This document shows positions 2 to 36,832 of a stretch of DNA of 64,000 bases, piece after piece (position 1 is the first letter of the stretch; every line of letters begins with the position of its first letter). The stretch comes from Candidatus Porifericomitaceae bacterium. Lineage in GTDB: Bacteria > Pseudomonadota > Gammaproteobacteria > Porifericomitales > Porifericomitaceae. A program made the translations under genes and the position numbers. The notes below the pieces were generated by a model. That model was given only the letters and a program-made list of their open reading frames with translations, did no database searches and was not told the DNA's origin. The DNA lies in NCBI GenBank assembly GCA_965212005.1, contig OZ243038.1:2103981-2167980 (forward strand), written 5' to 3'.

Positions 2-214
2 AGGCCGCCATTGGGATGGGAGCAATTTCGTGCCCTGGTGTCCCGTTCTCCGGTACCGGTTTATGCGTTAGGGGGTATGGAGCCGGCGCATCTGCGGAAC
101 GGTTGGTCGGCTGGCGCGCAAGGGCTGGCTATGCTGAGTGCCTTGCGCGATGCCGCTGATCCGGCCGCTATCGTGCGCGCCTGCGAGGAGGCACGCCGGA
201 GCGAATACGCATAG
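2..214 (+). CDS. C-terminal fragment of a thiamine-phosphate-synthase (ThiE)-like domain protein; the 5' end lies outside the window
   Basis: The frame is open from the window edge. ...VPVYALGGMEPAHL...AGAQGLAMLSAL... resembles the C-terminal AxGGI / GAxGvAvisa strands of ThiE-type TIM barrels. Confidence 0.45.
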   Translation, partial: RPPLGWEQFRALVSRSPVPVYALGGMEPAHLRNGWSAGAQGLAMLSALRDAADPAAIVRACEEARRSEYA

Positions 215-294
215 CGCGCCGTCCCATGGCGTGGCCAGTGCGCCTTGAGCGCGTTTTTCGCGGCCCTGGCGCGCCGTTGACTCCGATCTGCGGT

Positions 295-1775: not shown

Positions 1776-1860
1776 AACCGTCAGAACGCAGTGTTCCGAA
1801 AGCAGCGACGGCTTCTAGTGCTGGGGTGTAGGATCTGGGGTAGGTGCCGTGCTGCGGCTC

Positions 1861-3081: not shown

Positions 3082-3109
3082 GTTCCGATACCTCTCCTGC
3101 TGCCTGATT

Positions 3110-4834
3110 TTACTCTACGGTAACCCGGTTGATCTCGGAAAGGCTGGTCAGGCCGGCCTTGACTTTCATCAGCCCGGACCGGCGTATATCCCAGCAGCCT
3201 TCCTCTTTAGCCTGAGTCGCCAACTGCACTGCGTTAGCTCCTTCGATGATGAGCCGCTTCATTTCCTCGGAAACCGGCATGACCTGGTAGACGCCAACCC
3301 TTCCCTTGTATCCGCTGGGACAGGCGTCACCGCCGTTACCGGGTTCATACACCTCGAAATCGTCTTTCAAGTCCTCCGGGGTAAAGCCCTCCTTCAGCAG
3401 CGCTTTTTGGGGCATTTCCAATTCCTGCCGGTATTGCGGGTGTAGCCGCCGGGCCAGGCGTTGCGCAGTGATCAGGTTGATACTGGTTGCCACGGCGAAG
3501 GGCGGTATGCCCATGTCCTGCAAGCGGGTCAAGGTTTGCGGACCGTCATTAGTATGCAGCGTGGACATGACCATGTGGCCGGTTTGCGCGGCCTTGACGG
3601 CGATGCTGCCAGTGTCGAAGTCTCGAATCTCGCCGACCAGGATGATGTCTGGGTCCTGCCGCAAAAACGCCTTGAGGGCCTTGGAGAAAGTCATGCCGGT
3701 GCGTTCATCCACCTGCACCTGGTTGACGCCGGGCAGGTTGATTTCCACCGGATCTTCAGCGGTTGATATATTCACCTCTTCCTGGTTCAGGATATTGATT
3801 CCGGTGTACAGCGAGACGGTTTTGCCACTTCCGGTGGGACCGGTCACCAGGAACATTCCGTAAGGTTTTTGCAGGTTCTGGAGAAAAAGTTCCTTTTGGT
3901 GATCCTCGTAGCCCAATTGGTCGATTTGCAGCTTGGCGGCGTCCGAGTCCAGGATACGCATACAGCATTTTTCACCGAACAGCGTTGGACAGGTGCTGAC
4001 GCGAAAATCGATGGCCTTATTTTTGGATAGCTTCAGCTTGATGCGCCCGTCCTGCGGCACCCGCCTCTCGGATACGTCCAGCCGCGACATTACCTTAATG
4101 CGGGCCGATATCTTCTGCGACAGGATCAGCGGCGGCTTGGCAAATTCCTGCAGCATACCGTCGACTCGCAGCCGGACCCGGAAGTATTTTTCATAGGGTT
4201 CAAAGTGCAGGTCGGAGGCACCCAGCTTAATGGCGTCCACCAGCATCTTATTCACGAAGCGGACCACTGGCGCGTCTTCCACTTCTTCGCTGTGCGTGCT
4301 CTCGTCGGCGACTTCTTCGGCGGTGGTGGAAATGTTGTCCATGTCCTCCAAATCATCGCCCATCATGTCGTGCAGCGAAGATTCGGTCTCGTCAGCAATC
4401 TTTTCAAGGGCGCGATCCAGCTTGTGTTCCTCCACCACCACTGCCTCGATCAGGCAGCCCGTGGCAAACTTGATCTCATCCAGTGCCTGCAGGTTCGTCG
4501 GATCTGAAGTGCCGATGAACAGCTTCTTGCCTCGCTTATGCAGTGGAACCAAACGGTGTTTCTTCAGAGTGTCCAGCTTGGACTCCTTGATGACCTGCAT
4601 GTCCAACTCCACCGTGTCCAGATCGAGCAAAGGGATGCTAAAGTCCGCCGACGCGGTGCGGGCAATGTCCGCCGAGGCAACTTTCTTCTCGTTGACCAGG
4701 TAGGTAACCAGGGAAATTTTCCTTTTCTGCGCCTTCCGCGTGGCTTCCTGGGCTTCTTGTTCGCTGATGAGTTTGTGCGCCACAATCTTTCGCGCCAAGC
4801 CTGCGAGTGGGATCTTCTTTGCGGATGCGGCCAT
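3110..4834 (-). CDS. pilB: type IV pilus extension ATPase PilB (GspE family)
   Basis: 574 aa. Walker A is GPTGSGKT, Walker B region is [10 protein letters not shown], and the His box is [13 protein letters not shown]. The N-terminal GSPII-like region is MAASAKKIPLAGLARKIV... Confidence 0.92.
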   Translation of the reverse strand: MAASAKKIPLAGLARKIVAHKLISEQEAQEATRKAQKRKISLVTYLVNEKKVASADIARTASADFSIPLLDLDTVELDMQVIKESKLDTLKKHRLVPLHKRGKKLFIGTSDPTNLQALDEIKFATGCLIEAVVVEEHKLDRALEKIADETESSLHDMMGDDLEDMDNISTTAEEVADESTHSEEVEDAPVVRFVNKMLVDAIKLGASDLHFEPYEKYFRVRLRVDGMLQEFAKPPLILSQKISARIKVMSRLDVSERRVPQDGRIKLKLSKNKAIDFRVSTCPTLFGEKCCMRILDSDAAKLQIDQLGYEDHQKELFLQNLQKPYGMFLVTGPTGSGKTVSLYTGINILNQEEVNISTAEDPVEINLPGVNQVQVDERTGMTFSKALKAFLRQDPDIILVGEIRDFDTGSIAVKAAQTGHMVMSTLHTNDGPQTLTRLQDMGIPPFAVATSINLITAQRLARRLHPQYRQELEMPQKALLKEGFTPEDLKDDFEVYEPGNGGDACPSGYKGRVGVYQVMPVSEEMKRLIIEGANAVQLATQAKEEGCWDIRRSGLMKVKAGLTSLSEINRVTVE

Positions 4835-4869
4835 GGTTCTACCTGCAAATAATACTTAACTGATAGGCA

Positions 4870-4898
4870 AGTATACTAGAGCAGGAAAACGATGTCAC
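4870..4898 (-). promoter_or_regulatory. candidate sigma-70 promoter of pilB (GTGACA-17 nt-TATACT)
   Basis: The minus-strand reading gives GTGACA tcgttttcctgctctag TATACT about 35 nt upstream of the pilB ATG. The same element (GTGGCA-17-TATACT) is kept in the duplicate at 7338..7366. Confidence 0.35.
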
Positions 4899-4968
4899 TA
4901 GCCTGAAGAATTGGCCCCATGTTCGGGACCGGCCAGCATCCCCGCCTGCGTTGATTCGGCTTAAAAAG

Positions 4969-4983
4969 CATTGATTATCAATG
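4969..4983. promoter_or_regulatory. perfect 15-bp palindrome CATTGATtATCAATG upstream of pilB (candidate operator)
   Basis: Seen directly. An identical copy is retained at 7445..7459 in the decayed unit, although the surrounding DNA has diverged. Confidence 0.3.
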
Positions 4984-5069
4984 ATGCCAGGTAGAAAAGT
5001 CCGGTTCAGGCGAGCGGGAGTGCGGGCGCTGCCCGGACGGACTGGGTGGCGGTCGTTGCCCGGGGCCGG

Positions 5070-6188
5070 TCACCTCACCATAATCAACATAATCAACACG
5101 ATGCCTCCCAGAAAAATGATGATGATAGGCTCCATAATGGACTGCAAAGATCCCACCACGGCATCGACTTCCTCTTCGTAGAAGTCTGCTACTTTGTCCA
5201 GCATTTCGTCCAGGGAGCCGGCTTCCTCGCCGATGGACACCATATGCACCACCATGTTGGGGAACAGCTTGGTGTCGCGCATTGCCGACTGGAGCTGGGT
5301 GCCGGTGGCGATCTCGTCGCGCATCTCTATCGTGGCGTCATAGTAAACGGCGTTTCCGCATGTCCCGGCAACTGAAGTCATCGCTTCAACCAACGGGGTG
5401 CCGGCTGCAAACATCGTGGACAGAGTTCTGCAGAAGCGGGCAATCGCCGACTTGTTGAGAATGGGGCCCATAATAGGAAGACGCAGGGAAAGCCTGTCCA
5501 GGAAGCGGGCAAAGTTCTGTGAAGTCCTGCGCAGTCTCAGAGGGATTATGATCATGGCCGCAATCGCCATGAGGATCAGCAGGATGTACGGCTGCATAAA
5601 TGAGGAGGCTCCTACCAGCAGGAGGATGACGTTCACGATGAACGCCACGCCTAGCACAATGGCCGGATAAATCATCGCCTTCTTAATCTTCTGTTTCATC
5701 TGCTCGGACTTCTCTTTGTACAAAGCGATTTTGTGTAACAAAGATTCCAAAACTCCGGCCTTCTCTCCCGCTGCTATCAGGCTGATGTAGAGCGAATCGA
5801 ATTGCTTCGGATGCTTGGCCAGGGCTTCCGCCAAGGTTCCTCCGGCCTCCACGTCTCCCTTGATGGCCATAATTATTTCCTGCATCGAGGGGTTCTCATG
5901 TCCCTGCCCCATGATGTCGAAAGACTGCCCCAATGGAACACCGGAAGACATCATGGTCGCCATCTGGCGGCTAAAGACGGCGATGTCGCTGGCAGTGATC
6001 TTTTTGCCGCTTTTGCTGAACAGGGATTTGGTTTTTTTCTGTACTTTGAGTGGGCGGATCCCGCGATTACGCAGCCGGACCCGGGCCTGCTCCAAGTTGA
6101 GGGCATCCAACTCTCCCTGGACAATTTTGCCCCTCTCATTCTTGCCGGTCCAACTGAAGGTGAGCGTCTGCGATTGTGCGGCTGCCAT
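5070..6188 (-). pseudogene. pilC' - duplicated PilC copy with a 34-aa internal deletion and a replaced C-terminus (the ORF is still open)
   Basis: 372 aa, roughly nine in ten residues identical to PilC by eye. It lacks ...IPQFEELFANFGADLPALTKLVV... The last TM helix is truncated to ...GGIVLIMLIMVR, encoded by junction filler DNA. Confidence 0.6.
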
Positions 6189-6216
6189 GTTTCGATACCT
6201 CTCCTGCTGCCTGATT

Positions 6217-7304
6217 TTACTCTACGGTAACCCGGTTGATCTCGGAAAGGCTGGTCAGGCCGGCCTTGACTTTCATCAGCCCGGACCGGCGTATATCCCA
6301 GCAGCCTTCCTCTTTAGCCTGAATCGCCAACTGCACTGCGTTAGCTCCTTCGATGATGAGCCGCTTCATTTCCTCGGAAATCGGCATGACCTGGTAGACG
6401 CGAACCCTTCCCTTGTATCCGCTGGGACAGGCTGCACCGCCGTTATCGGGTTCATACACCTCGAAATCGTCTTTCAAGTCCTCCGCGGTAAAGCCCTCCT
6501 TCAGCAGCGTTTTTTGGGGCATTTCCAATTCCTGCCGGTATTGCGGGTGTAGCCGCCGGGCCAGGCGTTGCGCAGTGATCAGGTTGATACTGGTTGCCAC
6601 GGCGAAGGGCGGTATGCCCATGTCCTGCAGGCGGGTCAAGGTTTGCGGACCGTCATTAGTATGCAGCGTGGACATGACCATGTGGCCGGTTTGCGCGGCC
6701 TTGACGGCGATGCTGCCAGTGTCGAAGTCTCGAATCTCGCCGACCAGGATGATGTCTGGGTCCTGCCGCAAAAACGCCTTGAGGGCCTTGGAGAAGGTCA
6801 TGCCGATGCCGTCCATCCACCTGCACCTGGTTGACGCCGGGCAGGTTGATTTCCACCGGATCTTCAGCGGTCGATATATTCACCTCTTCCTGGTTCAGGA
6901 TATTGATTCCGGTGTACAGCGAGACGGTTTTGCCACTTCCGGTGGGACCGGTCACCAGGAACATTCCGTAAGGTTTTTGCAGGTTCTGGAGAAAAAGTTC
7001 CTTGCTTATGCAGTGGAACCAAACGGTGTTTCTTCAGGGTGTACAGCTTGGCCTCCTTGATGACCCGCATGTTCAACTCCACCGTGTCCAGATCGAGCAA
7101 AGGGATGCTAAAGTCCGCCGACGCGGTGCGGGCAATGTCCGCCGAGGCAACTTTCTTCTCGTTGACCAGATAGGTCACCAGGGAAAACTTCCTTTTCTGC
7201 GCCTTCCGCGTGGCTTCCTGGGCTTCTTGTTCGCTGATGAGTTTGTGCGCTACGATCTTTCGCGCCAAGCCTGCGAGTGGGATTTTCTTTGCGGATGCGA
7301 CCAT
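6217..7304 (-). pseudogene. pilB' - duplicated PilB copy broken into three frames
   Basis: Track ORFs 6864..7304 (N-terminal ~100 aa), 6656..6964 ([13 protein letters not shown]...) and 6217..6816 (C-terminal 199 aa) all match PilB. A 638-bp (non-multiple-of-3) deletion removes residues ~101-313. A +1 insertion shifts the frame again at ...VQVD|. Confidence 0.85.
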
Positions 7305-7337
7305 GGTTCTACCTGCAAATAAGATCTACCGACAGAA

Positions 7338-7366
7338 AGTATACCAGAGCAGGAAAACGATGCCAC
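7338..7366 (-). promoter_or_regulatory. duplicate copy of the pilB promoter candidate (GTGGCA-17 nt-TATACT)
   Basis: Homologous position to 4870..4898. This is presumably the ancestral promoter and now drives only the decayed copy. Confidence 0.3.
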
Positions 7367-7444
7367 TAGCTTGAGAACGGGTCCCATGTTCGGGACCGGT
7401 GCTTCCGGTGCAACCTCCTCGCCTGCGTTGATCGGATTAAAAGG

Positions 7445-7459
7445 CATTGATTATCAATG
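7445..7459. promoter_or_regulatory. second copy of the palindrome CATTGATtATCAATG
   Basis: Identical to 4969..4983. Confidence 0.3.
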
Positions 7460-7798
7460 ATGCCAGGCAGAAAAGTCCGGTTCAGGTGAGCGGGAGTGCG
7501 GGCGCTGCCCGGACGGACCCTGGCGGCGGTCGTTGCCCGGGGCCGGTCACGCGCATCCATCAGACGAGTTTCAGGACGGGGCGTCGTGCGGCAGGGCCTT
7601 AAAAGACCTCCCGGGCCATTAGAATCATGCGCGGCATTCCAGGCCTCATACCTGCGCACTCTATGCGCGGTTACGCCCACCGTTTTGGCGCCAGGAACAA
7701 AGGCGCGCTTGTCCTTCCCGCTCTAAATCATGAGTCGTTCGTGATGGCTGCCCGCCGGCTGCGTATCCGGATGCCGCCACGGCCAGGGGATCATCCCT

Positions 7799-22199: not shown

Positions 22200-23894
22200 A
22201 TGTCAAACCAGCACCAGAACGGGAACGCCGCCAAGGTCTTGCGATCCGATCCAGGAGCGCAGGCGAGCCGAGTCATGAACACTTCCGGCTGGGAACTGGC
22301 GGTCAGCGAGGAAGATTGGCGCTCGTTGCAGATATTTAACTGGTACCGGGTCATGCTGGGGAGCCTGTTTGTCGCGCTGATGCTGGTTGACTGGCTGCCG
22401 CCGCGCATGGGCCTGCTGAACCCGCAATTGTTCCTCGGGGCGGGGATTTCTCTCCTGGTTTTCTCTTTGCTGGGAACCCTGCTTACTCATTACCGTTTTC
22501 TGCCGTACGTGGCGCAGGTCACCCTGTATGCGTTCGCTGATATTGTCTTGCTGACAATGATGATGTACGGCTCCGGCGGCATGGGCAGCGGCTTGGAACT
22601 GCTGCTGTTGGTCAACGTGGCCGGGCACGGTGTTTTGGCCGGCAGGGCGATCGTTTTTCTTTATGCTTCTATGGCGGTATTGGCGGTGACTTTCGAGGAA
22701 GTTTACCTGTCTTACAGCTATGCGCCGGTATTGGCGGACTTCGGCAGCGTGGCTTTATTTTCTCTGGGGCTGTTGACGATCTCCGCTTTATGCGTCCTGC
22801 TGTCCAAACGCTACGCCAGCAGTCAGGCCTTGGCCTGGCTGCGTTCCCAGGAGCTGCGGACAATGTCGCTGTGGAACGAGCAGATCGTCAGGATGATGCG
22901 GACCGGCATCATCGTGCTGGGAGACGATATGCGCATACGATTGGCAAACTATTCGGCCAGAAAGCTGCTCGGGCTGCGCGAAGACAGTCCGAATGATATT
23001 TCCCTGCCGGCTAACGGCAGTCTGCTCACCGAATTGGTGAATACAGGGCAGCGCGAGCAGTTCCAAAGTCCCCAGGTGTTTCAGCGCCGCCTGGGAGGAG
23101 TCGAACTGCAGATCTCGGTGGTGCGCCTTGAAGCCGGTCGAAGCGTGTCCGGGTGGTTGCTGGTGTTGGAGGATTCTGCCGTCGTGCAGCAGCGAGCACT
23201 GCAGTTGAAGCATGCTTCCCTGGGCCGGCTGACTGCCAGCATCTCCCACGAGATCCGCAATCCTTTGGGAGTCATCAGCCACGCCATTCAATTATTGGCT
23301 GAATCCATGACCCAGGCGTCGACCGAGGATCGGAGGCTAATCGAACTGATACAGCGCCACGTGCGGCGTCTGAACGAGATTGTGGAAAACGTAATGCAAC
23401 TCAGCCGTCGCCGTCTGGCCCACCCGAACCAGCTTCAGATGGAGGTCTGGTTGAAGGAATTCGCCGACGAATTTGTTCAAGTGCGCCGCTTGCAGCAGAC
23501 GGACGTACGGGTACGGGTGTCCCCGCCGAATCTGTGTCTGAGTGCGGATGCCAGTCAACTCTACCAGATATTGTGGAACCTGGGAGAGAATGCAATACGT
23601 TATAGTTTTCATTCCCCGCTGTTGGAGTTGTGCTGCGGGATCCAGGAAGAACCATGCTGGCCATACATCGACGTCATCGATCGCGGGCCAGGGATAGCTG
23701 AGGATGCGGTGGACCGTCTTTTTGAGCCGTTTTTTACTACTGAAACAGAAGGCTCCGGCTTGGGCCTGTACCTGGCACATGAGTTGTGTGAAAGCAACCA
23801 GGCGAGCCTGCGCTTGCTGCGCAACACGCCCCAGGGTTGTTGTTTTCGGATCAACTTCGACCAACCCGCGATTTTGAGCCCTGTCCCGGACTGA
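22200..23894 (+). CDS. pilS: sensor histidine kinase PilS
   Basis: 564 aa. It has about six N-terminal TM helices, the H-box SHEIRNPL, and N/G boxes (NLGENAIRY, DRGPGI, GSGLGL). It lies directly upstream of pilR with a TGATG overlap. Confidence 0.8.
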   Translation: MSNQHQNGNAAKVLRSDPGAQASRVMNTSGWELAVSEEDWRSLQIFNWYRVMLGSLFVALMLVDWLPPRMGLLNPQLFLGAGISLLVFSLLGTLLTHYRFLPYVAQVTLYAFADIVLLTMMMYGSGGMGSGLELLLLVNVAGHGVLAGRAIVFLYASMAVLAVTFEEVYLSYSYAPVLADFGSVALFSLGLLTISALCVLLSKRYASSQALAWLRSQELRTMSLWNEQIVRMMRTGIIVLGDDMRIRLANYSARKLLGLREDSPNDISLPANGSLLTELVNTGQREQFQSPQVFQRRLGGVELQISVVRLEAGRSVSGWLLVLEDSAVVQQRALQLKHASLGRLTASISHEIRNPLGVISHAIQLLAESMTQASTEDRRLIELIQRHVRRLNEIVENVMQLSRRRLAHPNQLQMEVWLKEFADEFVQVRRLQQTDVRVRVSPPNLCLSADASQLYQILWNLGENAIRYSFHSPLLELCCGIQEEPCWPYIDVIDRGPGIAEDAVDRLFEPFFTTETEGSGLGLYLAHELCESNQASLRLLRNTPQGCCFRINFDQPAILSPVPD

Positions 23895-25242
23895 TGGAGA
23901 TTGCCATGGACACCGTGTTAGTGGTAGACGATGAACCCGATATTCGTGAACTGCTTGAAGTCACCCTTAAGCGAATGAACCTCAAATGCCGGTGCGCGCA
24001 AAATCTGCAGGAAGCCATGCTCATGCTGGATGGCAATGTCTCTTTCAGTCTGTGCCTGACGGACATGCGCCTGCCGGATGGAGACGGCATCCAGTGCGTG
24101 GAATACGTGCAGCAGCACTGTCCGCGCGTCCCAGTTGCAGTGATTACCGCTTACGGCAATATGGAATCAGCGATCAGGGCACTGAAGGCGGGTGCTTTCG
24201 ATTTTCTCTGCAAACCGGTAAAGCTGCCACAATTGCGCCAGTTGATTCGGGACGCGCAGGCACTGCAGCAGCCTTACGGCAATCCTACGCAGCACGTGCT
24301 GATCGGCAAAAGCGCATCGATCCGGGAACTGAAGGAGAACGCGAAAAAACTGGCGCGCAGCCAGGTGCCGGTTTATTTGAGCGGCGAGTCCGGCGTTGGC
24401 AAGGAGTTGGTGGCCCGCATGATCCATGATCACGGTCCGAGGCGCATGGCACCTTTTGTGCCGGTAAACTGCGGGGCAATCCCGCATGATCTGGTGGAAA
24501 GTGAGCTGTTCGGCTACAAGAAGGGCAGCTTTACCAGTGCCGTGGCGGACCGCGAAGGATTGTTTCGGGCAGCGGAAGGGGAACCCTGTTTTTTGACGAG
24601 CTCGCCGCATTGCCGCTGTCCGTGCAGGTCAAGCTGTTGCGCGCGATCCAGGAGCGCAGCATACGCCCTATCGGTGAGCGTCACGAGTTGCCCATTGACG
24701 TGCGGATACTCAGTGCCACCAACGATCCGCTGGAGAAACTGGTGCGGCAGGGGCGGTTCCGTCAAGATCTCTACTACCGCATCAACGTGGTGAATTTGCG
24801 GGTTCCCTCATTGCGCGAGCACAAGGAGGACGTGCCATTATTGGTGGAGCACCTGCTGCAGAGAGCGGTGGGGAACAATGAACGTCTGGCGGTGGTGCAG
24901 ATCGATGACCAGGCCATGGACGCGCTGCAGGCGTATTCTTACCCGGGCAACGTGCGTGAGTTGGAAAACATTATCAATCGGGCCGTGGCCCTGTGTGAGG
25001 GCAATCGGATCAGGGTGGAGGATCTGCGTTTGGCGCCGGAACTGGAGTTGGAAGCCGGCGTGGAGCCGGCAGAGCCGGCGGAGGGTTCGGAGAAATTGGA
25101 TGACTACCTCGGCAAAGCTGAGAAGAAGCGCATCTTGGAGGCATTGGAACAAACTCGCTGGAATCGGACTCGGGCGGCAAAGTTGCTCGGGCTCAGTCTG
25201 CGTGCGCTGCGCTACCGGCTGGAGAAGCTGAGGCTGGAATAG
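23894..25242 (+). pseudogene. pilR: sigma-54-dependent response regulator PilR, interrupted by a -1 frameshift
   Basis: The receiver domain (VLVVDDEPDIREL...TDMRLPDGDG) and the AAA+ start (SGESGVGKE) are in one frame. The rest (...LSVQVKLLRAIQE...GNVRELEN...Fis-type HTH AAKLLGLSLRALRYRL) is in another. Expected AAEGGTLFFDEL needs five G at 24578-24581, where only four are present. Confidence 0.8.
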
Positions 25243-26816: not shown

Positions 26817-26892
26817 TGGTGGCCAGGGGAGGAATCGAACCACCGACACGAGGATTTTCAGTCCCCTGCTCTGCCAACTGAGCTACCTGGCC
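26817..26892 (-). tRNA. tRNA-Phe (anticodon GAA), CCA encoded
   Basis: The reverse complement is GGCCAGGTAGCTCAGTTGGCAGAGCAGGGGACTGAAAATCCTCGTGTCGGTGGTTCGATTCCTCCCCTGGCCACCA and folds as a cloverleaf. The T-stem GGTGG/CCTCC contains one U:U mismatch. Confidence 0.9.
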
Positions 26893-27087
26893 ATGAATAT
26901 CAGGCGGTGCACTCATGTCCCCGCTGATCCTTCTGCCGCAGACGCGGCGGGCCTGCTGTACAGGCTGCGCAGATTAAAGCAGGAACGGACTTCAGGTCAA
27001 TCAGAAGGATGCGGCCAAGGTCGGGTACCCGCTGCGGAAATCACTGGACCGGCGCGGTGCCGTATCAGTGCCGTAAGACAGGTTCAG

Positions 27088-27671
27088 CCGGCTCGACGTC
27101 ACCGACGGGGAGGCCATCGGCAAGCTTGCGGCGCAGTTGGGCACCGTGGATATATTGTTTAATTGTGCCGGTTACGTGCACCATGGCACTATATTGGAAT
27201 GCGCCGAGCGGGACTTCGATAGTTTCCTTCGAGTTGAACGTGAAGTCGATGTACCGCGTGATACAGTCGTTTTTGCCCGCCATGCTGGAGGCAGGCGGCG
27301 GTGTTATATTGAACGTGTCCTCGGTGGTTTCCTCGATCAGGGGGGTGCCCAACCGCTTCGTCTACGGCGCTACCAAGGCAGCCGTGATCGGCATGAGCAA
27401 AGCGGTGGCGGCGGATTTTATCGATCGGGGCATTCGCTGCACCAGTATTTGCCCTGCCACTGTGGAATCCCCTTCGCTGGAGCAGCGGATCTCGGACCAG
27501 GTGCAGGGAAATGACGCCGATGCGGTACGCCAGGCTTTTATCGACCGGCAGCCGATCGGACGCTTGGGCAAACCTGAGGAAATAGCCGCCTTGGCCGCCT
27601 ACCTGGCCAGTGACGAAGCCGCCTACACTACCGGCGGCGTGCAGATTATCGATGGCGGCTGGTGCAACTGA
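27088..27671 (+). pseudogene. short-chain dehydrogenase (BDH2/DHRS6-like), 5'-degraded and frameshifted
   Basis: ...LDVTDGEAIGKLAAQLGTVDILFNCAGYVHHGTILECAERDFDS is in one frame. SFELNVKSMYRVIQSFLPAM...YGATKAAVIGMSKAVAADF...IIDGGWCN is in another, with the shift near 27222. No intact GxxxGxG Rossmann N-terminus can be read between tRNA-Phe and 27088. Confidence 0.65.
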
Positions 27672-29091: not shown

Positions 29092-30150
29092 TCACCGGGT
29101 AGTCAGTATAGCAAGCAATCGGCTCACGGGGGCAGCCAGCCCCACGCGCTTGCAGCCCGCGGCGCTCAGCCAGCGCCGCGGGCCCGGTTCCGCGCTGCGC
29201 AGCCTGCTGTCCGTTACCTGCAGCAGGATTGGCTGGATCTCCAGGCGGAAATGACTGAAAGTATGCACAAAGGGCTCAATGCGCCGCAGTGTACCGGACT
29301 GCAGGCCCAGTTCCGTCCAAGCCCAATGTGCCGGGTCGCACTCCGGCGCGCACTCTGGAAAGCACCATAATCCGCCCCAAATCCCGGTTGGTGGTCGCCG
29401 TTCCAGCAAGACCTCCTGCGCCCGGTTGCGGGCGATTAGAAAGCAGGTGCGCCGCCAGCGCAGCGGCTTGGCCGGCCTGGAGATCGGCCACCGTTCCGGG
29501 TGACCGCTGCGGCAGGCGGCGCAATCGCTGCGCAGTGGACAGTCCGGGCACTGCGGCCGGGTCCGCGTGCACAGCGTGGCACCCAGATCCATGATCGCCT
29601 GGGTGTATTCGGCGGCCTGGCGGCGCGGCAGCTTTTGCTCTGCCAGGGCCCACAGCTGCCGCTGCGCCGCCGGGGCGCCAGGCCATTGCTGAACGCAGTG
29701 ATAGCGGCTCAGTACCCGCTTGACGTTACCGTCCAGGATAGGGAAGGGCAGGTTGCTGCCCAGCGCCAGAATGGCTCCCGCGGTGCTGCGACCAATGCCA
29801 GGCAATTGCAGCAGCGCATCGAGTTCCCGCGGCAGTGCGCCCGCATGCCGTTCGCTTACCTGTTGCGCCGCCCGGTGCAGATTGCGGGCGCGGGCATAAT
29901 AACCAAGCCCGCTCCACAGCTGCAGTACCTGGTCCAGTTCTGCCGCGGCCAGCGTGCCGACATCCGGGAAACGCTGTATGAAGCGCGGGTAATAGGCGCA
30001 AACGGTGACCGCCCGAGTTTGCTGCAGCATGATCTCCGATACCCAGACCTGGTAGGCGGTCGGCGCCTGCTGCCAGGGCAGGTCGCGGCGTCCATGCACA
30101 CGTCCCCAGCGCAGCAGCTGCCCTGCGAAGGAATAGCGTCCAGTGCTCAC
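29092..30150 (-). CDS. mutY: A/G-specific adenine DNA glycosylase MutY
   Basis: It has an HhH-GPD core ([12 protein letters not shown]), the 4Fe-4S Cys cluster [20 protein letters not shown], and a NUDIX-like C-terminal domain. The GTG at 30150 gives about 353 aa. The 442-aa track ORF would overlap the upstream fmdB-like gene. Confidence 0.85.
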
Positions 30151-30187
30151 CGATGGCGCCGCTGCCCCCGTTACTGTACCCGGTTGC

Positions 30188-30649
30188 TTAGTCCCTGGAG
30201 CGATCCTTCGATCCGCGTTGGGAGCGATCCTTCGACCCGCGTTGGGAGCTGTCTTTGGTACTGCCCTGGGAGCTGTCTCTGGCGCTGTTCTCGGCATTGT
30301 GCCTGGAATCCGTTCCAGAGGCAGATGTGCTCTTGCCTTCCTCTGCCGGTGCCCGCGCTTTGCCGTTGGTGGCCTCGTCCTTGCCACGCTGCCCATCCCC
30401 GGCTTTTTCCGCTGGCGCATCCTCTTTGGCCTCTTTTTGCTCTTTTCCGTCCGCCTCCGGTTTGGGCTGATTACGAAAGTCGGTCTCGTACCAGCCGCTT
30501 CCCTTGAGACGAAAGGAGGTGGGCGAGATCAGCCGCCGCAGGCTCTCCCGGTTGCAGGATGGACACCGGAGCAACTCCTCCGCGTCCATTTTTTGCAGCG
30601 CTTCCAGCCGATGGCTGCAAGTACTGCACTGATATTCATAGATAGGCAT
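30188..30649 (-). CDS. FmdB-family zinc-ribbon protein with a low-complexity charged tail
   Basis: MPIYEYQCSTCSHRLEALQKM...LRCPSCN (CxxC...CxxC) is followed by a Lys/Glu/Ser/Asp-rich tail ending in repeated SQRGSKDRS units. Confidence 0.75.
   Translation of the reverse strand: MPIYEYQCSTCSHRLEALQKMDAEELLRCPSCNRESLRRLISPTSFRLKGSGWYETDFRNQPKPEADGKEQKEAKEDAPAEKAGDGQRGKDEATNGKARAPAEEGKSTSASGTDSRHNAENSARDSSQGSTKDSSQRGSKDRSQRGSKDRSRD
30197..30292. repeat. 4 x 24-bp tandem repeat inside the fmdB-like tail
   Basis: The four units are ggagcgatccttcgatccgcgttg, ggagcgatccttcgacccgcgttg, ggagctgtctttggtactgccctg and ggagctgtctctggcgctgttctc. Confidence 0.7.
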
Positions 30650-31003: not shown

Positions 31004-31080
31004 GGGCCGTTAGCTCAGCTAGGTAGAGCAGCTGACTTTTAATCAGAAGGTCACAGGTTCGATCCCTGTACGGCCCACCA
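31004..31080 (+). tRNA. tRNA-Lys (anticodon UUU), CCA encoded
   Basis: GGGCCGTTAGCTCAGCTAGGTAGAGCAGCTGACTTTTAATCAGAAGGTCACAGGTTCGATCCCTGTACGGCCCACCA. The acceptor, D and T stems pair perfectly. The anticodon loop is CTTTTAA. Confidence 0.9.
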
Positions 31081-31537
31081 TTCGCTTTCGGCTACAGCGG
31101 CATCCTCTACCTTGGTGCGGCGCAGGACTCTGACCACAGTTCAGGAGCAGGAGAGAGAGCAGGCGGGCGCTGCGGCGAGTGCGCCGCAGTGCCGTCCAGT
31201 GTCCGGTGGGTCCTTTTTGCGCTCTGCCCCAGTCCGGGTTCCAGCCAGTTTGCGGCAGACCTTGGTTCGAGTCACCTGCCGCCACTGGCCAATGCGGTGC
31301 CACAGACTATGCGCAGTGGCCACCCGCCAGGGCCGATGCCTGTGCCCGCCGCCGGCGCAAGATACAGTAATGGAGCCGCGCCCCGCTCCGCCGACTTGCC
31401 TGTCGCTGTGCCGGAGCCTTGAGCCCGCGGCGGCATGGCAGCGGGCGGCGCGGGAGTTGAGCTTTGCGGCTCTTGACATGCCTGCCGATGGTGCTTTAGG
31501 CTGACAGCATCCTAGCCGCCGGGCAGTGCCTTCTGCC

Positions 31538-31553
31538 TGGCACCGTTTTAGCT
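31538..31553 (+). promoter_or_regulatory. candidate sigma-54 promoter upstream of the traI-like operon
   Basis: TGGCAC-cgttt-TAGCT has exact GG-N10-GC spacing. It is intergenic and co-directional, about 280 nt upstream of ATG 31834. Confidence 0.4.
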
Positions 31554-31833
31554 TCCATATATCTGTGTCGCCTGGGCCGCGCAGATCTTTCCTCCTTCAG
31601 CCGTTGTGTCCGCGCCAGGTCGTCGGTACTTCGACTACGCAAACAGTGCACGGTTGGCACCAGCCTTGTCTGCCATGGTAGACGGGTTGGGACGGCGTTT
31701 GCCGAAACTCCGGCGATACTGGATCGTCGCCCCCGCCGCAGTCTCAGTGGGGGCTGCCCGATATGGCATGGAGCGGGCGGCAAGCGGATCAAGCAATGGA
31801 TAATGAGGGAACATAAGGGACAGTAATCACGCC

Positions 31834-32895
31834 ATGGACGGCAATGAAGCAATCAACAGCTTGGGAGCGGACTTTCTTTTGCAACAGGAGTTGCCGGAAG
31901 TGCTGCGGCCCTGCCGGGAGCCATTACGGCATATTCGTCGGCTGGCGGGTTTGCCCGTGGGCCTCTGGGACAAACTCTACCTGCAACTTTTTGTGCAATT
32001 TGCTGATTGCCTGCCGGAGTTTTCGCTGTTGTCGGAATCCGATTCTGCCGTACTGGACGTGCACGATCCGGCGGAAATGCTGGCGCGAACTCTGACCGAA
32101 GTGCTAGCGGCACTGCGCCGCCGTCAGCACCGCCTGTTGCCTGTAGGCGCGACGGAAGGAGTGGGCTTGAATGCCGATCGCTGGAGTTATGCGCTGGTCA
32201 GCGCGGTATTGCTGCGCGCACTGGCGCTGCAGAGCGGGCGCCGCGCTGGCGTCGCCGATCCTGCTTCGGATCTGCAAGCTGCGGGCCGATGTGCTCCCCG
32301 CGGCCCTGCATACTGGGTACAGCGCCTGTTGCCGCCGTCAGGTGCCGCCTGGTTGGCCGCGGACCGGGCAGTATCGACGGCCTTGGAGCGAGTCATCCGC
32401 GGCCAGACGGAACCAAGCGGACTGGGCGCACTATTAGCAGAGTGCGATCAACGCGGGACCGTGGTCCAGCCTGCCAGACTGGTCCCGGCAGCGCCCGTCG
32501 CGGCGGCCTTTTTGCGCTGGTTGGAGGATGAGGCAGGGAAAGCGGCGCCCGGTCGCGTTGATTCCTGCCTGTACATAGTGCGGGAAGGGTTGCTGTTGCT
32601 CAGTCCGGCCGCTTTTCAGCGCTCCGACGCCGTACATTGGAAAGAGGTGCAGAAACGATTCCAGGGCTTGCGGCTGCATGCCCGGACTCCGCGCGGGGAT
32701 AACATCTGGGGATACCGCCTGCGCAAAAACGAGCGCCGCAGCAGTTTGATCAAGGGCTTTTTGATCCGGCGTTCCCGTTTTGCGCGCCTCGGCCTCCCTG
32801 GCTCATTGGCACCCGATCCACGTCTGACCCCGGTGGAAATACCGCCGCGGCAAGAGGGCGCTGCGGCATTTTCACCGCAAGCCACGGTGCGATGA
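31834..32895 (+). CDS. TraI-like (MOBH relaxase-related) protein, half-length and lacking the His cluster
   Basis: 353 aa. The N-terminal ...LYLQLFVQFADCLPEFSLLSESD... aligns by eye to the ...YAAFVHLLPASESHHH... region of SXT TraI. The C-terminal ...LLLSPAAFQRSDAVHWKEVQKRFQGLRLHARTPRGDNIWGY... resembles the TraI_2 C-terminal domain. There is an ATGA overlap with the next gene. Confidence 0.35.
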   Translation: MDGNEAINSLGADFLLQQELPEVLRPCREPLRHIRRLAGLPVGLWDKLYLQLFVQFADCLPEFSLLSESDSAVLDVHDPAEMLARTLTEVLAALRRRQHRLLPVGATEGVGLNADRWSYALVSAVLLRALALQSGRRAGVADPASDLQAAGRCAPRGPAYWVQRLLPPSGAAWLAADRAVSTALERVIRGQTEPSGLGALLAECDQRGTVVQPARLVPAAPVAAAFLRWLEDEAGKAAPGRVDSCLYIVREGLLLLSPAAFQRSDAVHWKEVQKRFQGLRLHARTPRGDNIWGYRLRKNERRSSLIKGFLIRRSRFARLGLPGSLAPDPRLTPVEIPPRQEGAAAFSPQATVR

Positions 32896-34799
32896 AAGAA
32901 CAAGCGCTCGATAACCGCGTTCGCCCGGCAGTAGAGTTTGCCCCCGGCGTGACCGCATTGGTCAGTGCTGTATTGCTGCTGCTGCAGCCTGCCTGGTTTC
33001 TGCCACTGCTGCCCGGGGCTGCCAGCGTTGCCGGTGTCTGCTGCTTATTGCTGGGAGGGTGGCGTATCGTCCAGGGGATCCGCATCCTGCGCTACCGGCG
33101 CCATCTGCTCCACCTGAGCCCGCATGAATTGCGCGCCGGGCGAATCCCGCTGCGGCCGGACTCGCTGTATTTGGGTATGGGGTTCCGCTGGACCCGGGCG
33201 CATAGTCAGCGCCTGATTGAAAGGCGGGCACCGGGTGCCGGGCGCTGGTTGCGACCGGGACTGGTGGAACGTCTGTGCCGCGGCGAAGACGCTTTACAGA
33301 TGGGTGGCGAGCCGGCTTTGCATGGGGTCGGCGCGCAGGAGGAGGAGGCAGTGTTCCTCCGGGAGGCGGACCGCAGCGGTCATGCACTGGTCATGGGAAC
33401 TACCCGGGTGGGCAAAACTCGCCTGGCCGAGCTGCTGATCACGCAGGATATTCACCGTGGACATTGCGTGATTGTGTTCGATCCGAAAGGAGACGTGGCA
33501 TTGCGCCAGCGCGTCTGTACGGAGGCGGCTCGCGCCCGGCGCACGCAGCAGTTGCATCTGTTTCACTTGGGGTTCCCGGAATTGTCGGAAGGCTACAACC
33601 CGGTCGGTGAATTTCACCGCGTTACCGAGGTAGCCTCCCGGATTGCGGCGCAGTTGCCGGGGGAGGGGGATGGCGCCGCTTTCCGGGAGTTTACCTGGCG
33701 TTTTGTCAACATCATTGCCCAGGCGCTGGCCAAGCTCGGTCGCAAGCCGGACGTACGCGCGCTGCGGCGCTTTCTGTCGCACATAGAGCCGCTACTGATC
33801 CAGTACTGTGAGCATTGGCTGGGTCACAGCGGACCGACAGATTGGAGGCTGCAGGTGGCGCAGATACAAAAAGAGTTGCGCCCCGGCAGTCTGCCGCCGG
33901 CGTTGCGCGGGCGGCAGCCGCGCGCTGTCGCGCTGTTTCATTTTATGCGCCGGCACTCGGTGCAAGACGACGTGATGGAGGGACTATTTAGTATTCTGAC
34001 CTGCGAAAAGAGCCATTTCGATAAGTTGATCGCCAGTTCGTTGCCGCTGTTGGAGAAATTGGGCACCGGCAAGGTAGGCGAGTTATTGGTCTGTCAGGGA
34101 GATCGTCCGATGTTGGATTGGCGGCGCCTGGTTCGGGAGGGTGGCATCGCCTACGTTGGCCTCGATGCGCTGGCTGACGCGGAAGTGGCCGCCGCGGTTG
34201 GCGGCAGCATGTTTGCCGACCTGAGTTCAGTAGCCGGGCAATTATACAAACACGGAACGCATTATGGTCTGCCGTCCGGTGCAGTCCAGACCGGATCGAT
34301 CTGCATCCACGCGGATGAATTCAGCGAAATCGTCGGCAAAGAATTCATTCCGTTGCTAAACAAGGCAGGCGGCGCCGGCGTCAAAGTCACCGCTTATACC
34401 CAGACGCTGTCCGATATTGAGGCGGGGACCGGTGACCGAGCCAGCGCCGGGCAGGTGCTCGGCAATCTGAACACGCTCATCATGCTGCGCGTGCGCAACG
34501 AGGAGACCGCTCGCCTGCTGACCGACCAGCTTCCCTTGGTGCAACTCTATACTCGCGTCATGGAATCGCGCTTTGTGGATAACGATGATCCGGATACAGC
34601 AGTGGACTTCAGCTCTTCCAACGCCGATCGCCTGAATGTGGCGGAAAATCCGATGCTGTCGCCGGCAGACCTGATTTCCCTGCCGAAGGGACAGGCTTTT
34701 GCGCTTTTGGAAGGAGGCCACCTGGTTAAGCTTCGGCTGCCATTGCTGACCGGTGACGACGGCCCGCAGGAAATCCAGTCGGAGTTGCCTGATGGATGA
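32892..34799 (+). CDS. traD: TraD/VirD4-type conjugative coupling ATPase
   Basis: 635 aa with two N-terminal TM helices. Walker A is GTTRVGKT and Walker B is SICIHADEF. The overall architecture matches ICE-type TraD. Confidence 0.75.
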   Translation: MKEQALDNRVRPAVEFAPGVTALVSAVLLLLQPAWFLPLLPGAASVAGVCCLLLGGWRIVQGIRILRYRRHLLHLSPHELRAGRIPLRPDSLYLGMGFRWTRAHSQRLIERRAPGAGRWLRPGLVERLCRGEDALQMGGEPALHGVGAQEEEAVFLREADRSGHALVMGTTRVGKTRLAELLITQDIHRGHCVIVFDPKGDVALRQRVCTEAARARRTQQLHLFHLGFPELSEGYNPVGEFHRVTEVASRIAAQLPGEGDGAAFREFTWRFVNIIAQALAKLGRKPDVRALRRFLSHIEPLLIQYCEHWLGHSGPTDWRLQVAQIQKELRPGSLPPALRGRQPRAVALFHFMRRHSVQDDVMEGLFSILTCEKSHFDKLIASSLPLLEKLGTGKVGELLVCQGDRPMLDWRRLVREGGIAYVGLDALADAEVAAAVGGSMFADLSSVAGQLYKHGTHYGLPSGAVQTGSICIHADEFSEIVGKEFIPLLNKAGGAGVKVTAYTQTLSDIEAGTGDRASAGQVLGNLNTLIMLRVRNEETARLLTDQLPLVQLYTRVMESRFVDNDDPDTAVDFSSSNADRLNVAENPMLSPADLISLPKGQAFALLEGGHLVKLRLPLLTGDDGPQEIQSELPDG

Positions 34800-34920
34800 A
34801 GCCCGGATGATTGCCGCTCTGTGCCGACTAACGGCGGCAGTAGCCGCCGCCGGGCAGTGGTGAACCCGGACCGACTGGCGTCTGCGCCGCCACGGCGGGT
34901 GAGCGCTGCGTTAGTGCCGC

Positions 34921-35595
34921 ATGCCCGGCGCATTTGCCGCGCCGTTCGCTAAACAGATGCGAATCGGATGGATCCTGCTTTGGGCCGCGGCGATCAGCTT
35001 CGGTGCCCTGGTGATCGACCTTTTGTACGTGTGCTGGCCTTACCCTGCGGCGCGGGGGCTGGAGGCCTTTCAGGACAACGTGCAGCGCGAGTGGCACTGG
35101 ATCGGACAGGCAGACCCGCGCATCCCGCGGCTGGGACAGACGATCTTCCACAATTTGTATCAAGCTCTGTTCGTTGCCTCAGGCATCGATGCGCTGCTGC
35201 AGGAAGCAGGACGTCCTCAACAGGGCATCGATCAGTTCGCTGTGCGCTGGGTGCAGGGAAATCAGCATCTGGTCCTCACCGCCTATTACGGTCTGCGCTT
35301 GTATGCACTGCGCCTGAGCGTCCTGCTGCATATGGCGCCGCTGCTGATCTGCGCCTTGGTTGCCTTCGTGGACGGTTGGGCAGCTTGGTGGTTGCGTCGC
35401 CTGTCTGTCGCCAGAGAGAGCAGCTTCCTGTATCACCGGGGCAAGAGGCTGTTTTCCTGCTGCTGTCTGGCGATTGGAATCGGTTACCTGCTGCCGCCCG
35501 TTCCGTTGGATCCGCGCTGGATCGTGCTGCCCCTGCTGGCCTGCGTCGTAGTACTGCTGCGGAATCTGATGGCCGGCTTCAAAAAGTACTTGTAA
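34921..35595 (+). CDS. DUF4400 / TraJ-like integrating-conjugative-element membrane protein
   Basis: 224 aa with four hydrophobic helices. The cytoplasmic motif WWLRRLSVARESSFLYHRGKR is the one I associate with the family found downstream of traD in SXT/PFGI-1-type elements. Confidence 0.55.
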   Translation: MPGAFAAPFAKQMRIGWILLWAAAISFGALVIDLLYVCWPYPAARGLEAFQDNVQREWHWIGQADPRIPRLGQTIFHNLYQALFVASGIDALLQEAGRPQQGIDQFAVRWVQGNQHLVLTAYYGLRLYALRLSVLLHMAPLLICALVAFVDGWAAWWLRRLSVARESSFLYHRGKRLFSCCCLAIGIGYLLPPVPLDPRWIVLPLLACVVVLLRNLMAGFKKYL

Positions 35596-35821
35596 GCGGG
35601 CGGCGTCCGGTTTCGTGCCCCAGCCCTGTCTCCTTCCTCGCCGGTATCGGATCGAGCCTCGGCTGATTTTTCGCCTCACCAGGCGGACATTAGCGTGCGC
35701 CGCCCGCTGCCGTCCCGGTGGTCAACGCGCCTGCATCCGATCCGCCAGTTCCCGCTGCGGATACTCGCAACGGAAATGTCTTCGCTGCGCGGCACCGGGT
35801 GAGTGCCGCAGGCCGGTATAA

Positions 35822-36832
35822 ATGAACGCGGCGACGGCAGCGGCGGAATTGATCGGGGCCAGCCCGGCGATAGACGAGTTGCGCCGCCAGGTCGATCGCT
35901 TTGCCGATGCGCCTCACCCGGTGCTGGTGGAAGGGGAGTCCGGATCGGGCAAGGAACTGGTAGCGCGGTTGTTGCACGGACGCAGCTACCGGGCCGAGCG
36001 CCCGTGCCTGAAGATTAACTGCGCGGCACTGCCGGCGGACTTGCTGGAGGCGCAGCTTTTCGGTCACGCCCGCGGCGCATTCACCGGGGCGATCCATAGC
36101 CGTGAGGGTTTCCTGGGCGTCGCTGCACGCGGCAGCCTGCTGCTGGACGAGATAGCAGAACTGCCGTTGGAGCTCCAGTCCAAGCTGCTGCGTGTACTGG
36201 ATGACGGTGAGTACTATCGATTGGGAGAAACAACGCCTCGCCGGCTGCAGGCTCGCGTTATCGCCGCCACCAATCGCCCCGTGCATGGGTTGGTGCAGGC
36301 GAGCCGCTTTCGCGCCGATCTGTATTATCGCTTAGGCGTATTGCGCATCCGGGTGCCTCCGCTGCGTGAGCGGGGCGAAGACGTGCTGCGTCTGTTCGAG
36401 CATTTTTCCGCTGCCGGTGCAGAGGCTTTCCGGCTCAGCCCAGCGGGCCGGGCGCTGCTGAAGCGGCACTTGTTTCCGGGGAATGTGCGCGAACTGCGCA
36501 ACCTGGTCGTACGCCTGGAGGCCAAGGGTGCGAGCGGGGAAATTTCGGCTGCTGCGCTGGAAGCGGAGTTGGAGCCGGAACTGGCGCCGACGCCAAGCGC
36601 GGCGGCGCCCGCTGCTTGCTGCCGCCAGGCCATGCTGGAAGGAACATTCCGGTTGTCGCAGGCCTTAGGAGAACTGGAACGCCGCTGCCTCCTGGAGGCG
36701 GTGCAGTTGGCCACTGGCAATCTGAGCTTGGCAGCACGCCTGCTCGGACTGCCGCGCACCACGCTGTATGGACGGCTGCGGCATTTTTCCATCCCGCTGT
36801 TTCGCGTTGGTCCCGCAGAGGGTGCCGAATGA
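35822..36832 (+). CDS. sigma-54-dependent transcriptional activator without an N-terminal sensor/receiver domain (PspF-like architecture)
   Basis: 336 aa, and the AAA+ core starts at about residue 10. It has Walker A GESGSGKE, the sigma-54 contact loop GAFTGA, Walker B LLLDEI, and GNVRELRN. The C-terminal Fis-type HTH is LSLAARLLGLPRTTLYGRL. Confidence 0.85.
   Translation: MNAATAAAELIGASPAIDELRRQVDRFADAPHPVLVEGESGSGKELVARLLHGRSYRAERPCLKINCAALPADLLEAQLFGHARGAFTGAIHSREGFLGVAARGSLLLDEIAELPLELQSKLLRVLDDGEYYRLGETTPRRLQARVIAATNRPVHGLVQASRFRADLYYRLGVLRIRVPPLRERGEDVLRLFEHFSAAGAEAFRLSPAGRALLKRHLFPGNVRELRNLVVRLEAKGASGEISAAALEAELEPELAPTPSAAAPAACCRQAMLEGTFRLSQALGELERRCLLEAVQLATGNLSLAARLLGLPRTTLYGRLRHFSIPLFRVGPAEGAE

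Follow-up and report, generated by a model that had tools for sequence, protein, structure and literature searches.

We analysed a 64-kb window (64,000 nucleotides of contig OZ243038.1, from a Candidatus Porifericomitaceae bacterium) in which three co-directional conjugation-type genes, traI', traD and dtrJ, follow a tRNA-Lys gene. The trio is probably the remnant of a type-B element of the MOBH2/PFGI-1 class (i.e., one with the gene order traI-traD-dtrJ) that sat at tRNA-Lys and was reduced by deletions. On this reading, an integrative element of that class would have inserted at or close to tRNA-Lys, presumably its ancestral target, and later deletions would have stripped all but the module, also clipping a neighbouring host response-regulator gene. 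Genes for tRNA-Lys are a well-known integration target of the PFGI-1/ICEclc family. The leftovers would be a relaxase homologue without both metal-binding motifs and part of its HD-type domain; TraD, a predicted membrane-anchored coupling ATPase with every hallmark of activity; and DtrJ, its putative membrane partner. Alone, the locus would be expected neither to excise nor to nick or transfer, and for TraD-DtrJ to act, a mating pore would have to be supplied from outside it. The sigma-54 'activator' that follows the trio would be collateral damage and no regulator of it. A degraded integrative and conjugative element (ICE) is a known kind of object, and as such a remnant the locus would be ordinary, since bacterial chromosomes are full of such relics.

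The features of the locus are as follows (positions are those of the window):

31004-31080, + strand: tRNA-Lys (UUU, anticodon ttt), found by ARAGORN; Rfam tRNA, 69.7 bits
31081-31833, no strand: spacer, 753 bp of non-coding DNA bearing sigma-54-like -24/-12 motifs
31834-32895, + strand: traI', 353 amino acids; degenerate, shortened N-terminal domain and conserved TraI_2_C
32892-34799, + strand: traD, 635 amino acids; type IV coupling protein (T4CP) of the PFGI-1/TOL class
34921-35595, + strand: dtrJ (DUF4400/TraJ-like), 224 amino acids; predicted inner-membrane partner of TraD
35596-35821, no strand: junction DNA, within which lie the right limit of the element-derived DNA and the end-point of the regulator deletion
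35822-36832, + strand: truncated NtrC-family sigma-54 response regulator, 336 amino acids; AAA+, lid and HTH_8, no REC; host-derived

The coordinates and lengths of the four co-directional genes are exactly those given in an earlier sequence-only reading of this DNA, and the ATGA overlap that it reported between traI' and traD is present at 32892-32895.

TraD, DtrJ and the relaxase homologue TraI'

The product of traD had been read as a TraD-type T4CP with intact Walker motifs, and this assignment held. The protein scored above the cut-offs of both TIGR03754 (728.1 bits vs 647.55) and TIGR03743 (635 bits vs 366), its Walker A (GTTRVGKT) and Walker B (ICIHADEF) motifs are intact in the translation and lie in alignment-invariant columns, and two hydrophobic stretches at residues ~20-60 appear, by inspection, to be N-terminal anchors. 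Its best homologues are 58% identical to it, and it is without a segment of ~27-30 amino acids (ELRFE...WNPLRPLPP) that is present in the 676-amino-acid TraDs of ICEs. DtrJ, encoded directly downstream, belongs to the DUF4400 family, as had been proposed (PF14348, DUF4400/DtrJ-like; 89.1 bits, cut-off 27), and scored below the cut-off of an NCBIfam hypothetical-equivalog model (82 bits vs 138.5). It keeps 18 of 22 family-conserved positions and is 41-42% identical to the DtrJ proteins of two related loci, L001 and L002. Judged by these features, TraD and DtrJ look functional.

We next compared TraD with 78 ICE TraDs at 171 near-invariant columns, each at least 97% conserved among them. The window protein keeps 156 of these residues and differs at 15, compared with at most 6 changes (median 0) in the ICE TraDs (n=78), an excess that fits a relaxed or shifted constraint on TraD.

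The product of traI' had been called TraI-like, and this description proved correct for its C-terminal part. Residues 223-320 (approximately) passed the TraI_2_C profile (PF07515, DUF1528; 42.2 bits, cut-off 27.3), whereas the relaxase domain, with its HHH and HD motifs, was not recovered: the N-terminal domain had no match to PF07514, and the protein fell below threshold for both MobH NF041494 (33.2 bits, cut-off 200) and TIGR03760 (39.9 bits, cut-off 161.4). Profile searches of the trio, as the sequence-only reading had advised, thus returned TraD, DUF4400 and TraI_2_C and missed the TraI_2 N-terminal domain. Alignment with the full-length TraIs that neighbour TraD at related loci revealed what has been lost. 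The alternative 3H motif (S-E-x-H-H-H) is gone, with PEFSLLSESDSAVLDVHDPAEML aligned to LPASEAHHHA of the full-length relatives, and so is the HD phosphohydrolase motif (LLHDxGK; LLHDIGKP in relatives), where TraI' has VLLRALALQ. The variable middle region is missing, and in the relaxase domain ~182 of ~275 positions can be aligned, about a third being absent. The N-terminal domain is 22-34% identical to that of full-length TraIs (ICE TraI pairs at a similar TraD distance have a relaxase-domain mean of 38%), while the C-terminal domain is 27-45% identical, matching or exceeding what is normal for ICEs (34%).

The predicted structure was in line with this division. An AlphaFold2 model of TraI' (built on a 62-sequence alignment; mean pLDDT 81.8) gave PDB 2IPQ, a TraI_2_C structure, as its top Foldseek match, via the C-terminal domain (E 1.8e-4, target-normalised TM-score 0.74), and its helical N-terminal domain matched no HD-domain structure in that search. 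The TraI' sequence had no match among PDB chains and no close homologue in 1.8 billion representative proteins (the best reached only 109 bits).

Of note, the prototype MOBH relaxase cannot cleave without its 3H and HD motifs, and a motif-less clade, MOBH3, is already thought to have an alternative function (PMC6736028). Given that both cleavage-essential motifs are lost and that motif-less MOBH3 proteins set a precedent, we treat TraI' as catalytically dead; we infer that it would be unable to nick DNA, and it is not a credible relaxase. Like TraI', the MOBH3 TraI homologues (STY4665, PDB 2IPQ; a Coxiella protein, PDB 3KQ5) combine TraI_2-like and TraI_2_C domains without 3H or HD motifs; despite the C-terminal superposition on 2IPQ, TraI' is without detectable sequence similarity to the 2IPQ and 3KQ5 chains. 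It is closest to MOBH2-type TraIs, which suggests that its motifs were lost independently of the MOBH3 clade, and the loss of the catalytic motifs with retention of TraI_2_C is apparently both new here and independent.

Short TraI homologues are also encoded directly upstream of traD elsewhere. Many of those of 350-555 amino acids are without HHH (L064, L082, L039, L073, L055, L058, L069, L085, L088 and L003/L004), some of them also without HD, and at several betaproteobacterial loci TraI is motif-less despite an adjoining cluster resembling a type IV secretion system (T4SS). The many loci involved suggest that the pairing of TraD with a motif-less 'TraI' may be a state that recurs and not a single decay event.

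Related elements, missing functions and the origin of the module

A scan of GTDB species representatives with the TraD alignment yielded 80 loci, the architectures of which were derived from clustered open reading frames (ORFs). A DUF4400 gene lies immediately downstream of TraD in 77 of the 87 loci surveyed. At type-A loci (Pseudomonas and other gammaproteobacteria), TraD is 44-50% identical to the window's, TraD-DtrJ lie among T4SS genes and traI is located elsewhere. Type B, with the order traI-traD-dtrJ, includes all close relatives (TraD 53-58% identical). In L001 (Sedimenticola), the trio is followed downstream by alpA, an HTH gene, hipA and an integrase gene, next to mutS, and several betaproteobacteria have a T4SS cluster directly upstream of the trio, on the opposite strand. 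Since all of the closest TraDs occur in type-B trios, we take the window's trio to be the DNA-processing/coupling module of a type-B element; the conjugation-type module that had been proposed beside tRNA-Lys is thereby borne out, its order being that of its nearest relatives.

The likeness is greatest to the Sedimenticola hydrogenitrophicus island (L001) and to loci in Thiothrix and Solimonas, which share the window's gene order, orientation and overlapping traI/traD. Such gammaproteobacterial traI-traD-dtrJ elements carry the closest TraD (58%), DtrJ (41%) and TraI C-terminal domain (45-48%). Their TraIs, however, are 560-720 amino acids long with intact ASEAHHH and LLHDIGKP, whereas the 353-amino-acid TraI' has neither, and at least one of these relatives, unlike the window's trio, sits in an integrase-bearing island. 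The order traI-traD-dtrJ is also that of SXT/R391 and IncC plasmids. With ICEs of the PFGI-1/ICEclc/PAPI-1 family, the window shares a TraD that passes their equivalog model (TraD/IceD4, TIGR03754), and in ICEclc a TraD gene and a gene for the DUF4400/TIGR03747 membrane protein adjoin (orf68987/orf68241) as they do here (PMC10018362). In contrast, type-A loci of the PFGI-1 family, including all Pseudomonas members, have T4SS genes on both sides of TraD, of which the window has none; compared with them, it also has no integrase or att site, and its TraD is without the ~27-amino-acid segment.

The sequence-only reading had seen nothing else conjugative in the 64 kb, and our searches agree that integrase, T4SS and partition genes are absent. 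A blastx comparison of the whole window with 9,873 ORFs of 87 TraD-bearing or control loci matched the trio as its only element genes, and among the large, real-looking ORFs of the window, Pfam searches identified none as an integrase, partition or T4SS gene. No integrase or other element remnant was detected in two non-coding stretches by Pfam (E up to 1) or by blastx against ICE-locus ORFs, nor any element remnant in non-coding stretches by tblastn with the proteins of L088, a locus described below. A repeat of the tRNA-Lys 3' end, which the earlier reading had suggested looking for, was not found within the window, where searches with 26 nt or 18 nt of this sequence, allowing 3 mismatches, located a single copy, and no convincing direct repeat or other att-like repeat brackets the trio. 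The window thus yielded no integrase or recombinase, no att repeats, no mating-pore genes and no functional relaxase, the features of an ICE. As for an integrative and mobilisable element, the window offers no integrase, no att site and no upstream-region similarity to relatives, and TraD is encoded without a cognate T4SS in the 64 kb.

Across 29 related loci, the DNA upstream of traI shows no significant similarity to the spacer. Upstream of traI, the closest full-length type-B elements (L001, L006, L008, L009, L011, L013 and L015) share a conserved ~40-nt element, a candidate oriT (origin of transfer) or regulator site, which the window does not have. This element consists of repeated ATGGAAGGGG/ATGGAAAGG units followed by GGCCTTAYCCGAAAGGGC, and in L013 spans about positions 550-592 of the extracted upstream piece. 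A 21-nt inverted repeat around the trio (31431-31451/35697-35717, 19/21 matching) seemed significant by a single-pattern test; we set it aside as chance, because Markov-1 simulations of the 6.2-kb region produced an equal or better one 25% of the time.

TraD-DtrJ pairs with no conjugation genes in the available flanks were present at three further loci (L002, L005 and L038), the TraDs of which share the window's missing ~30-amino-acid segment. In L002, a 362-kb metagenome contig, the pair lies without traI between leuS-lptE-holA-cspA and adhesin genes; in L005 it stands at a contig end; and in L038 (Proteobacteria bacterium UBA6729, 33-5869) only 6 bp separate its end from the stop codon of an sspA-like gene, which is followed by petC-petB-petA, on the other strand. 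Both L005 and L038 are cut by contig ends. The survey for T4SS-free copies of the cassette that had been called for returned pairs, in differing contexts and in L002 without traI. The terminal branches of these TraDs and the window's measure 0.29-0.35 substitutions/site, vs 0.01-0.14 for other type-B TraDs, and the four proteins carry 15-25 changes each at the 171 near-invariant columns. As far as sequence comparison goes, this stripped, fast-evolving TraD-DtrJ clade is a new finding. Its probable sister (bootstrap 57%) is L088, where DUF2857-AcaB-p107-TraI'(408 amino acids, also motif-less)-TraD-DtrJ abut mutM. Among five clade-related loci, none has a tRNA gene.

The pair in L038 adjoins the same pet operon as the window's, at its other end and inverted. 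Vertical inheritance beside this operon was considered and gained no support: none of the 80 closest metagenome pet loci has TraD or DtrJ nearby, and L038 is not demonstrably a close relative, since its petB identity of 73% equals the best found anywhere. The common neighbourhood may reflect chance, an insertion region common to both, or old synteny plus an inversion. In L005, DtrJ adjoins an AAA gene, which turned out to bear no relation to AAA22, the gene after the intact regulator in relatives. The TraD of L061 (Chromatiales bacterium HKST-UBA171, 2582-6151) branches at the base of the stripped clade; in L061, a candidate TraT-like surface-exclusion lipoprotein, so identified by sequence reading, is encoded directly upstream of a full-length TraD-DtrJ; this locus has no traI, and its flanks hold a GHKL-type ATPase gene and toxin-antitoxin-like genes.

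The sequence-only reading had offered three origins for the trio, i.e., the last remnant of an ICE, a minimal mobilisable island or a domesticated module, and the first is the best fit. Several observations nonetheless weigh against it. Two separate deletions would be needed, sparing exactly the three genes, and TraD and DtrJ are intact while several neighbouring genes are broken. In a neighbour-joining tree of 83 TraDs (Kimura distances, with which long-branch attraction is possible), the window's TraD forms one clade with those of L002, L005 and L038 (bootstrap 99-100%), and ~8 of the shifted positions deviate in at least three of these four proteins, which also share the deletion, so that more than random decay is suggested. 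On the window's TraD branch (~0.29 substitutions/site), 3 of 134 invariant columns changed, vs 29 of 122 others (those where the three sister sequences agree), family-invariant residues thus being kept ~10-fold better than other comparable positions. Moreover, four-fold sites of traD are near saturation within the stripped clade (43-50% identical vs 33-37% expected) and the proteins are still 55-58% identical, demonstrating purifying selection over most of their history. Constraint on TraD would seem to have shifted or loosened, yet to have stayed mostly purifying, and the genes do not look long dead. In addition, the C-terminal domain of TraI' is kept as well as in working elements. Lastly, the collections searched hold no close relative of this genome that would date the losses.

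Some of these observations also speak for a retained, or domesticated, module, with TraD-DtrJ and a dead TraI' selected for a role other than self-transfer, e.g., obstructing ICEs of the same family, whether incoming or resident, through titration of their relaxosome or coupling partners, or the handling of other substrates. The four stripped pairs have intact ORFs and share both the deletion and shifts at otherwise invariant positions, dN/dS is low, DtrJ has kept its core, TraI' has kept its C-terminal domain beside a decayed catalytic domain, and the genes stand intact amid pseudogenes. A precedent for such a decoy is CtiC of SGI1-like islands, a decoy that imitates a relaxase C-terminal domain and blocks relaxosome assembly (PMC13635750). 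Like TraI', CtiC is non-catalytic, keeps a relaxase C-terminal domain and is encoded on a non-autonomous island; the parallel is an analogy only, as CtiC has 84 amino acids and imitates the MobI-binding winged-helix domain of MOBH12 TraI rather than TraI_2_C, and the window has no known MobI-like partner or interference activity. On the other side, the four stripped loci lie in different genomic contexts and each is a singleton cluster in 5.8 billion proteins, so no lineage is seen keeping the module; the selection could date from the element-borne phase; the invariant-site changes also fit relaxed constraint; and the absence of T4SS genes at L005 and L038, cut as they are by contig ends, covers the available flanks only. 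The tree supporting the clade is of a kind prone to long-branch attraction, and PADLOC gave no defence signature, its only hits being generic: a weak P-loop match for TraD, and AAA+ matches for the regulator. Thus, the clade lends domestication some support, though we consider it unlikely and not the best-fitting origin. It is likewise doubtful that TraD-DtrJ, joined here by a dead TraI', represent a small, previously unrecognised lineage of coupling-ATPase modules kept on chromosomes, off conjugative elements; such a lineage, were it real, might serve anti-conjugation/fertility inhibition or ATP-driven membrane translocation of another substrate. Two things are noteworthy here: the ATPase and DtrJ recur intact and stripped in at least four unrelated contigs and in one supported clade, and a relaxase homologue without catalysis retains TraI_2_C, a domain of unknown function. 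If truly retained, the pair would offer a rare coupling protein with a life outside conjugation, and a handle on the roles of DtrJ and TraI_2_C.

A minimal mobilisable island, in which the trio would supply its own T4CP and perhaps a relaxosome factor while a helper ICE supplies the mating pore, relaxase and recombinase, seems improbable. Elements with their own T4CP are known, and IEVchAut1-type mobilisable islands are, like the window's locus, chromosomal and encode a T4CP without a mating pore (PMC11493245). The location at a tRNA gene and the compact, co-directional, translationally coupled genes would suit such an island, and the different chromosomal contexts of the clade members could reflect mobility. 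However, IEVchAut1-type islands keep a working relaxase, integrase, att sites and oriT, none of which is detectable in the window. Here, the relaxase motifs are lost, neither a direct repeat of the tRNA end nor another att-like repeat was found in the window, the upstream DNA has no similarity to that of related elements and lacks their conserved ~40-nt element, and the right junction is a truncated host gene instead of a clean att site. The tRNA-gene location is itself matched by 0/5 clade-related loci. With a seemingly dead relaxase and no att site, integrase or recognisable oriT in the window, this origin is disfavoured.

Sigma-54 motifs and the neighbouring regulator

The sequence-only reading had further placed the trio between sigma-54 control elements, namely a promoter match at 31538 and a 'sensor-less' activator gene downstream. 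The match itself is present: TGGCACCGTTTTAGC at 31538-31552 (+) has one mismatch to the TGGCAC-N5-TTGC consensus and keeps the GG-N10-GC core. So does TGGGACGGCGTTTGC at 31688-31702 (+) have one mismatch and keep the GG and GC dinucleotides, and further sigma-54-like motifs lie at 31288-31302 (-) and, as a variant without the GC dinucleotide, at 31655-31669 (+). These four one-mismatch sites fall within 415 bp of the spacer, a locally unusual clustering. The promoter reading fared less well, as such matches are common in the window (13 one-mismatch sites observed vs 7.7 ± 3.2 expected by chance) and no comparable site was found upstream of the trio in 22 related loci. The 31538 site, moreover, also forms the 3' arm of a hairpin resembling a terminator, and no upstream activator site was found for the trio.

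The downstream gene encodes a protein with a sigma-54 activator domain (PF00158, 202.7 bits) and HTH_8 (35.5 bits), with GAFTGA and Walker motifs in its translation, which scored 220 bits against the PspF equivalog (cut-off 443). The best 120 homologues listed for it are 52-60% identical, and almost all of them are NtrC-type response regulators 440-500 amino acids long with an N-terminal REC domain (PF00072). At 2 homologue loci that we examined (regulators 58-60% identical and ~480 amino acids long), the gene is part of a pilus/secretin cluster, metK-ahcY-metF-RR-AAA22-secretin-TPR-MshE-GspF (RR, response regulator). Similarity to the full-length regulators begins at window position 35831, corresponding to homologue residues 162-194, and no REC-like sequence was found upstream. 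The REC-bearing homologues, the point at which homology starts and the lack of an upstream REC together show the gene to be a 5'-truncated host response-regulator gene, which is most simply read as a deletion scar and is not part of the module. The 'sensor-less' control element is thereby reinterpreted, and the case carries a caution, namely that a 'sensor-less' sigma-54 activator adjacent to an island can be a host response regulator beheaded by deletion.

Could the truncated regulator, constitutively active for want of REC, drive the trio from the 31538 or 31688 site? Removal of REC activates some regulators of this family, as in those of the DctD/NtrC1 type, and the protein still has GAFTGA, Walker A and B and HTH_8. 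The clustering of three GG/GC-preserving sites, plus the one without GC, in 415 bp also speaks for it, both strands of the 64 kb holding 9 GG/GC-preserving sites. Nevertheless, we consider this very improbable. The regulator is a host gene fragment whose intact homologues serve pilus/secretin clusters, and its gene has no obvious ribosome-binding site ahead of it. The promoter matches are open to the objections already raised, i.e., their frequency in the window, their absence ahead of the trio in the 22 related loci and the hairpin at 31538, and the sole candidate for an activator site, the 21-nt inverted pair, is at chance level. Sigma-54 control of the trio in any form is unlikely.

Gene decay and flanks in the window

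Consistent with the deletions that the remnant reading calls for, several genes in the window are pseudogenes, indicating a genome that is actively losing DNA. At 903-7520, pilD-pilC-pilB is followed by a ~3.1-kb tandem duplication of pilC-pilB, with copies 93-99% identical; the second pilC copy is internally deleted (372 amino acids vs 406), as is the second pilB copy, which is left as a 199-amino-acid C-terminal ORF and fragments. At 22200-25242, pilS, encoding a PilS-type histidine kinase with six transmembrane segments, precedes a pilR split by a frameshift into 23837-24793, which covers REC and half the sigma-54 domain, and 24610-25242, which covers the remainder together with the lid and HTH. 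Just downstream of tRNA-Phe (26817-26892), a short-chain dehydrogenase ORF (27009-27671) matches only profile positions 101-235 of adh_short_C2 and is apparently 5'-truncated. The sigma-54 regulator after the trio is the fifth broken gene. The earlier picture of an intact trio amid at least five broken genes stands as to the five and as to TraD and DtrJ, and not as to TraI', which is shortened and motif-less. As a side observation, pilR makes a second broken sigma-54 activator in the window.

The DNA 3' of tRNA-Lys had been described as ORF-free. Its 753 bp hold short ORFs only, none with a Pfam match, and GC content by codon position is flat (0.64/0.64/0.64 in all three frames), whereas the neighbouring genes are clearly periodic, so that the spacer is genuinely non-coding. 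The junction DNA (35596-35821) has no Pfam match, and Rfam detected the tRNA only in the 30.5-37.2 kb region. The flanks are housekeeping, as had been stated, with yggX, mutY and a Zn-ribbon gene upstream and petABC and an sspA-like gene downstream. Elsewhere in the window, the Pfam searches of large, real-looking ORFs identified pilD, pilC, pilB, clpB, gdhA, rluD, bamD and nadE, as well as sucCD, pilS, pilR, transporters, reductases and proteases. Within 29092-30649, the longest mutY ORF encodes 442 amino acids, with an N-terminal extension of ~100 amino acids rich in Arg, Pro and Ala that overlaps the Zn-ribbon (FmdB-type) gene on the same strand at 30188-30649; the true mutY start is probably further downstream than this ORF suggests.

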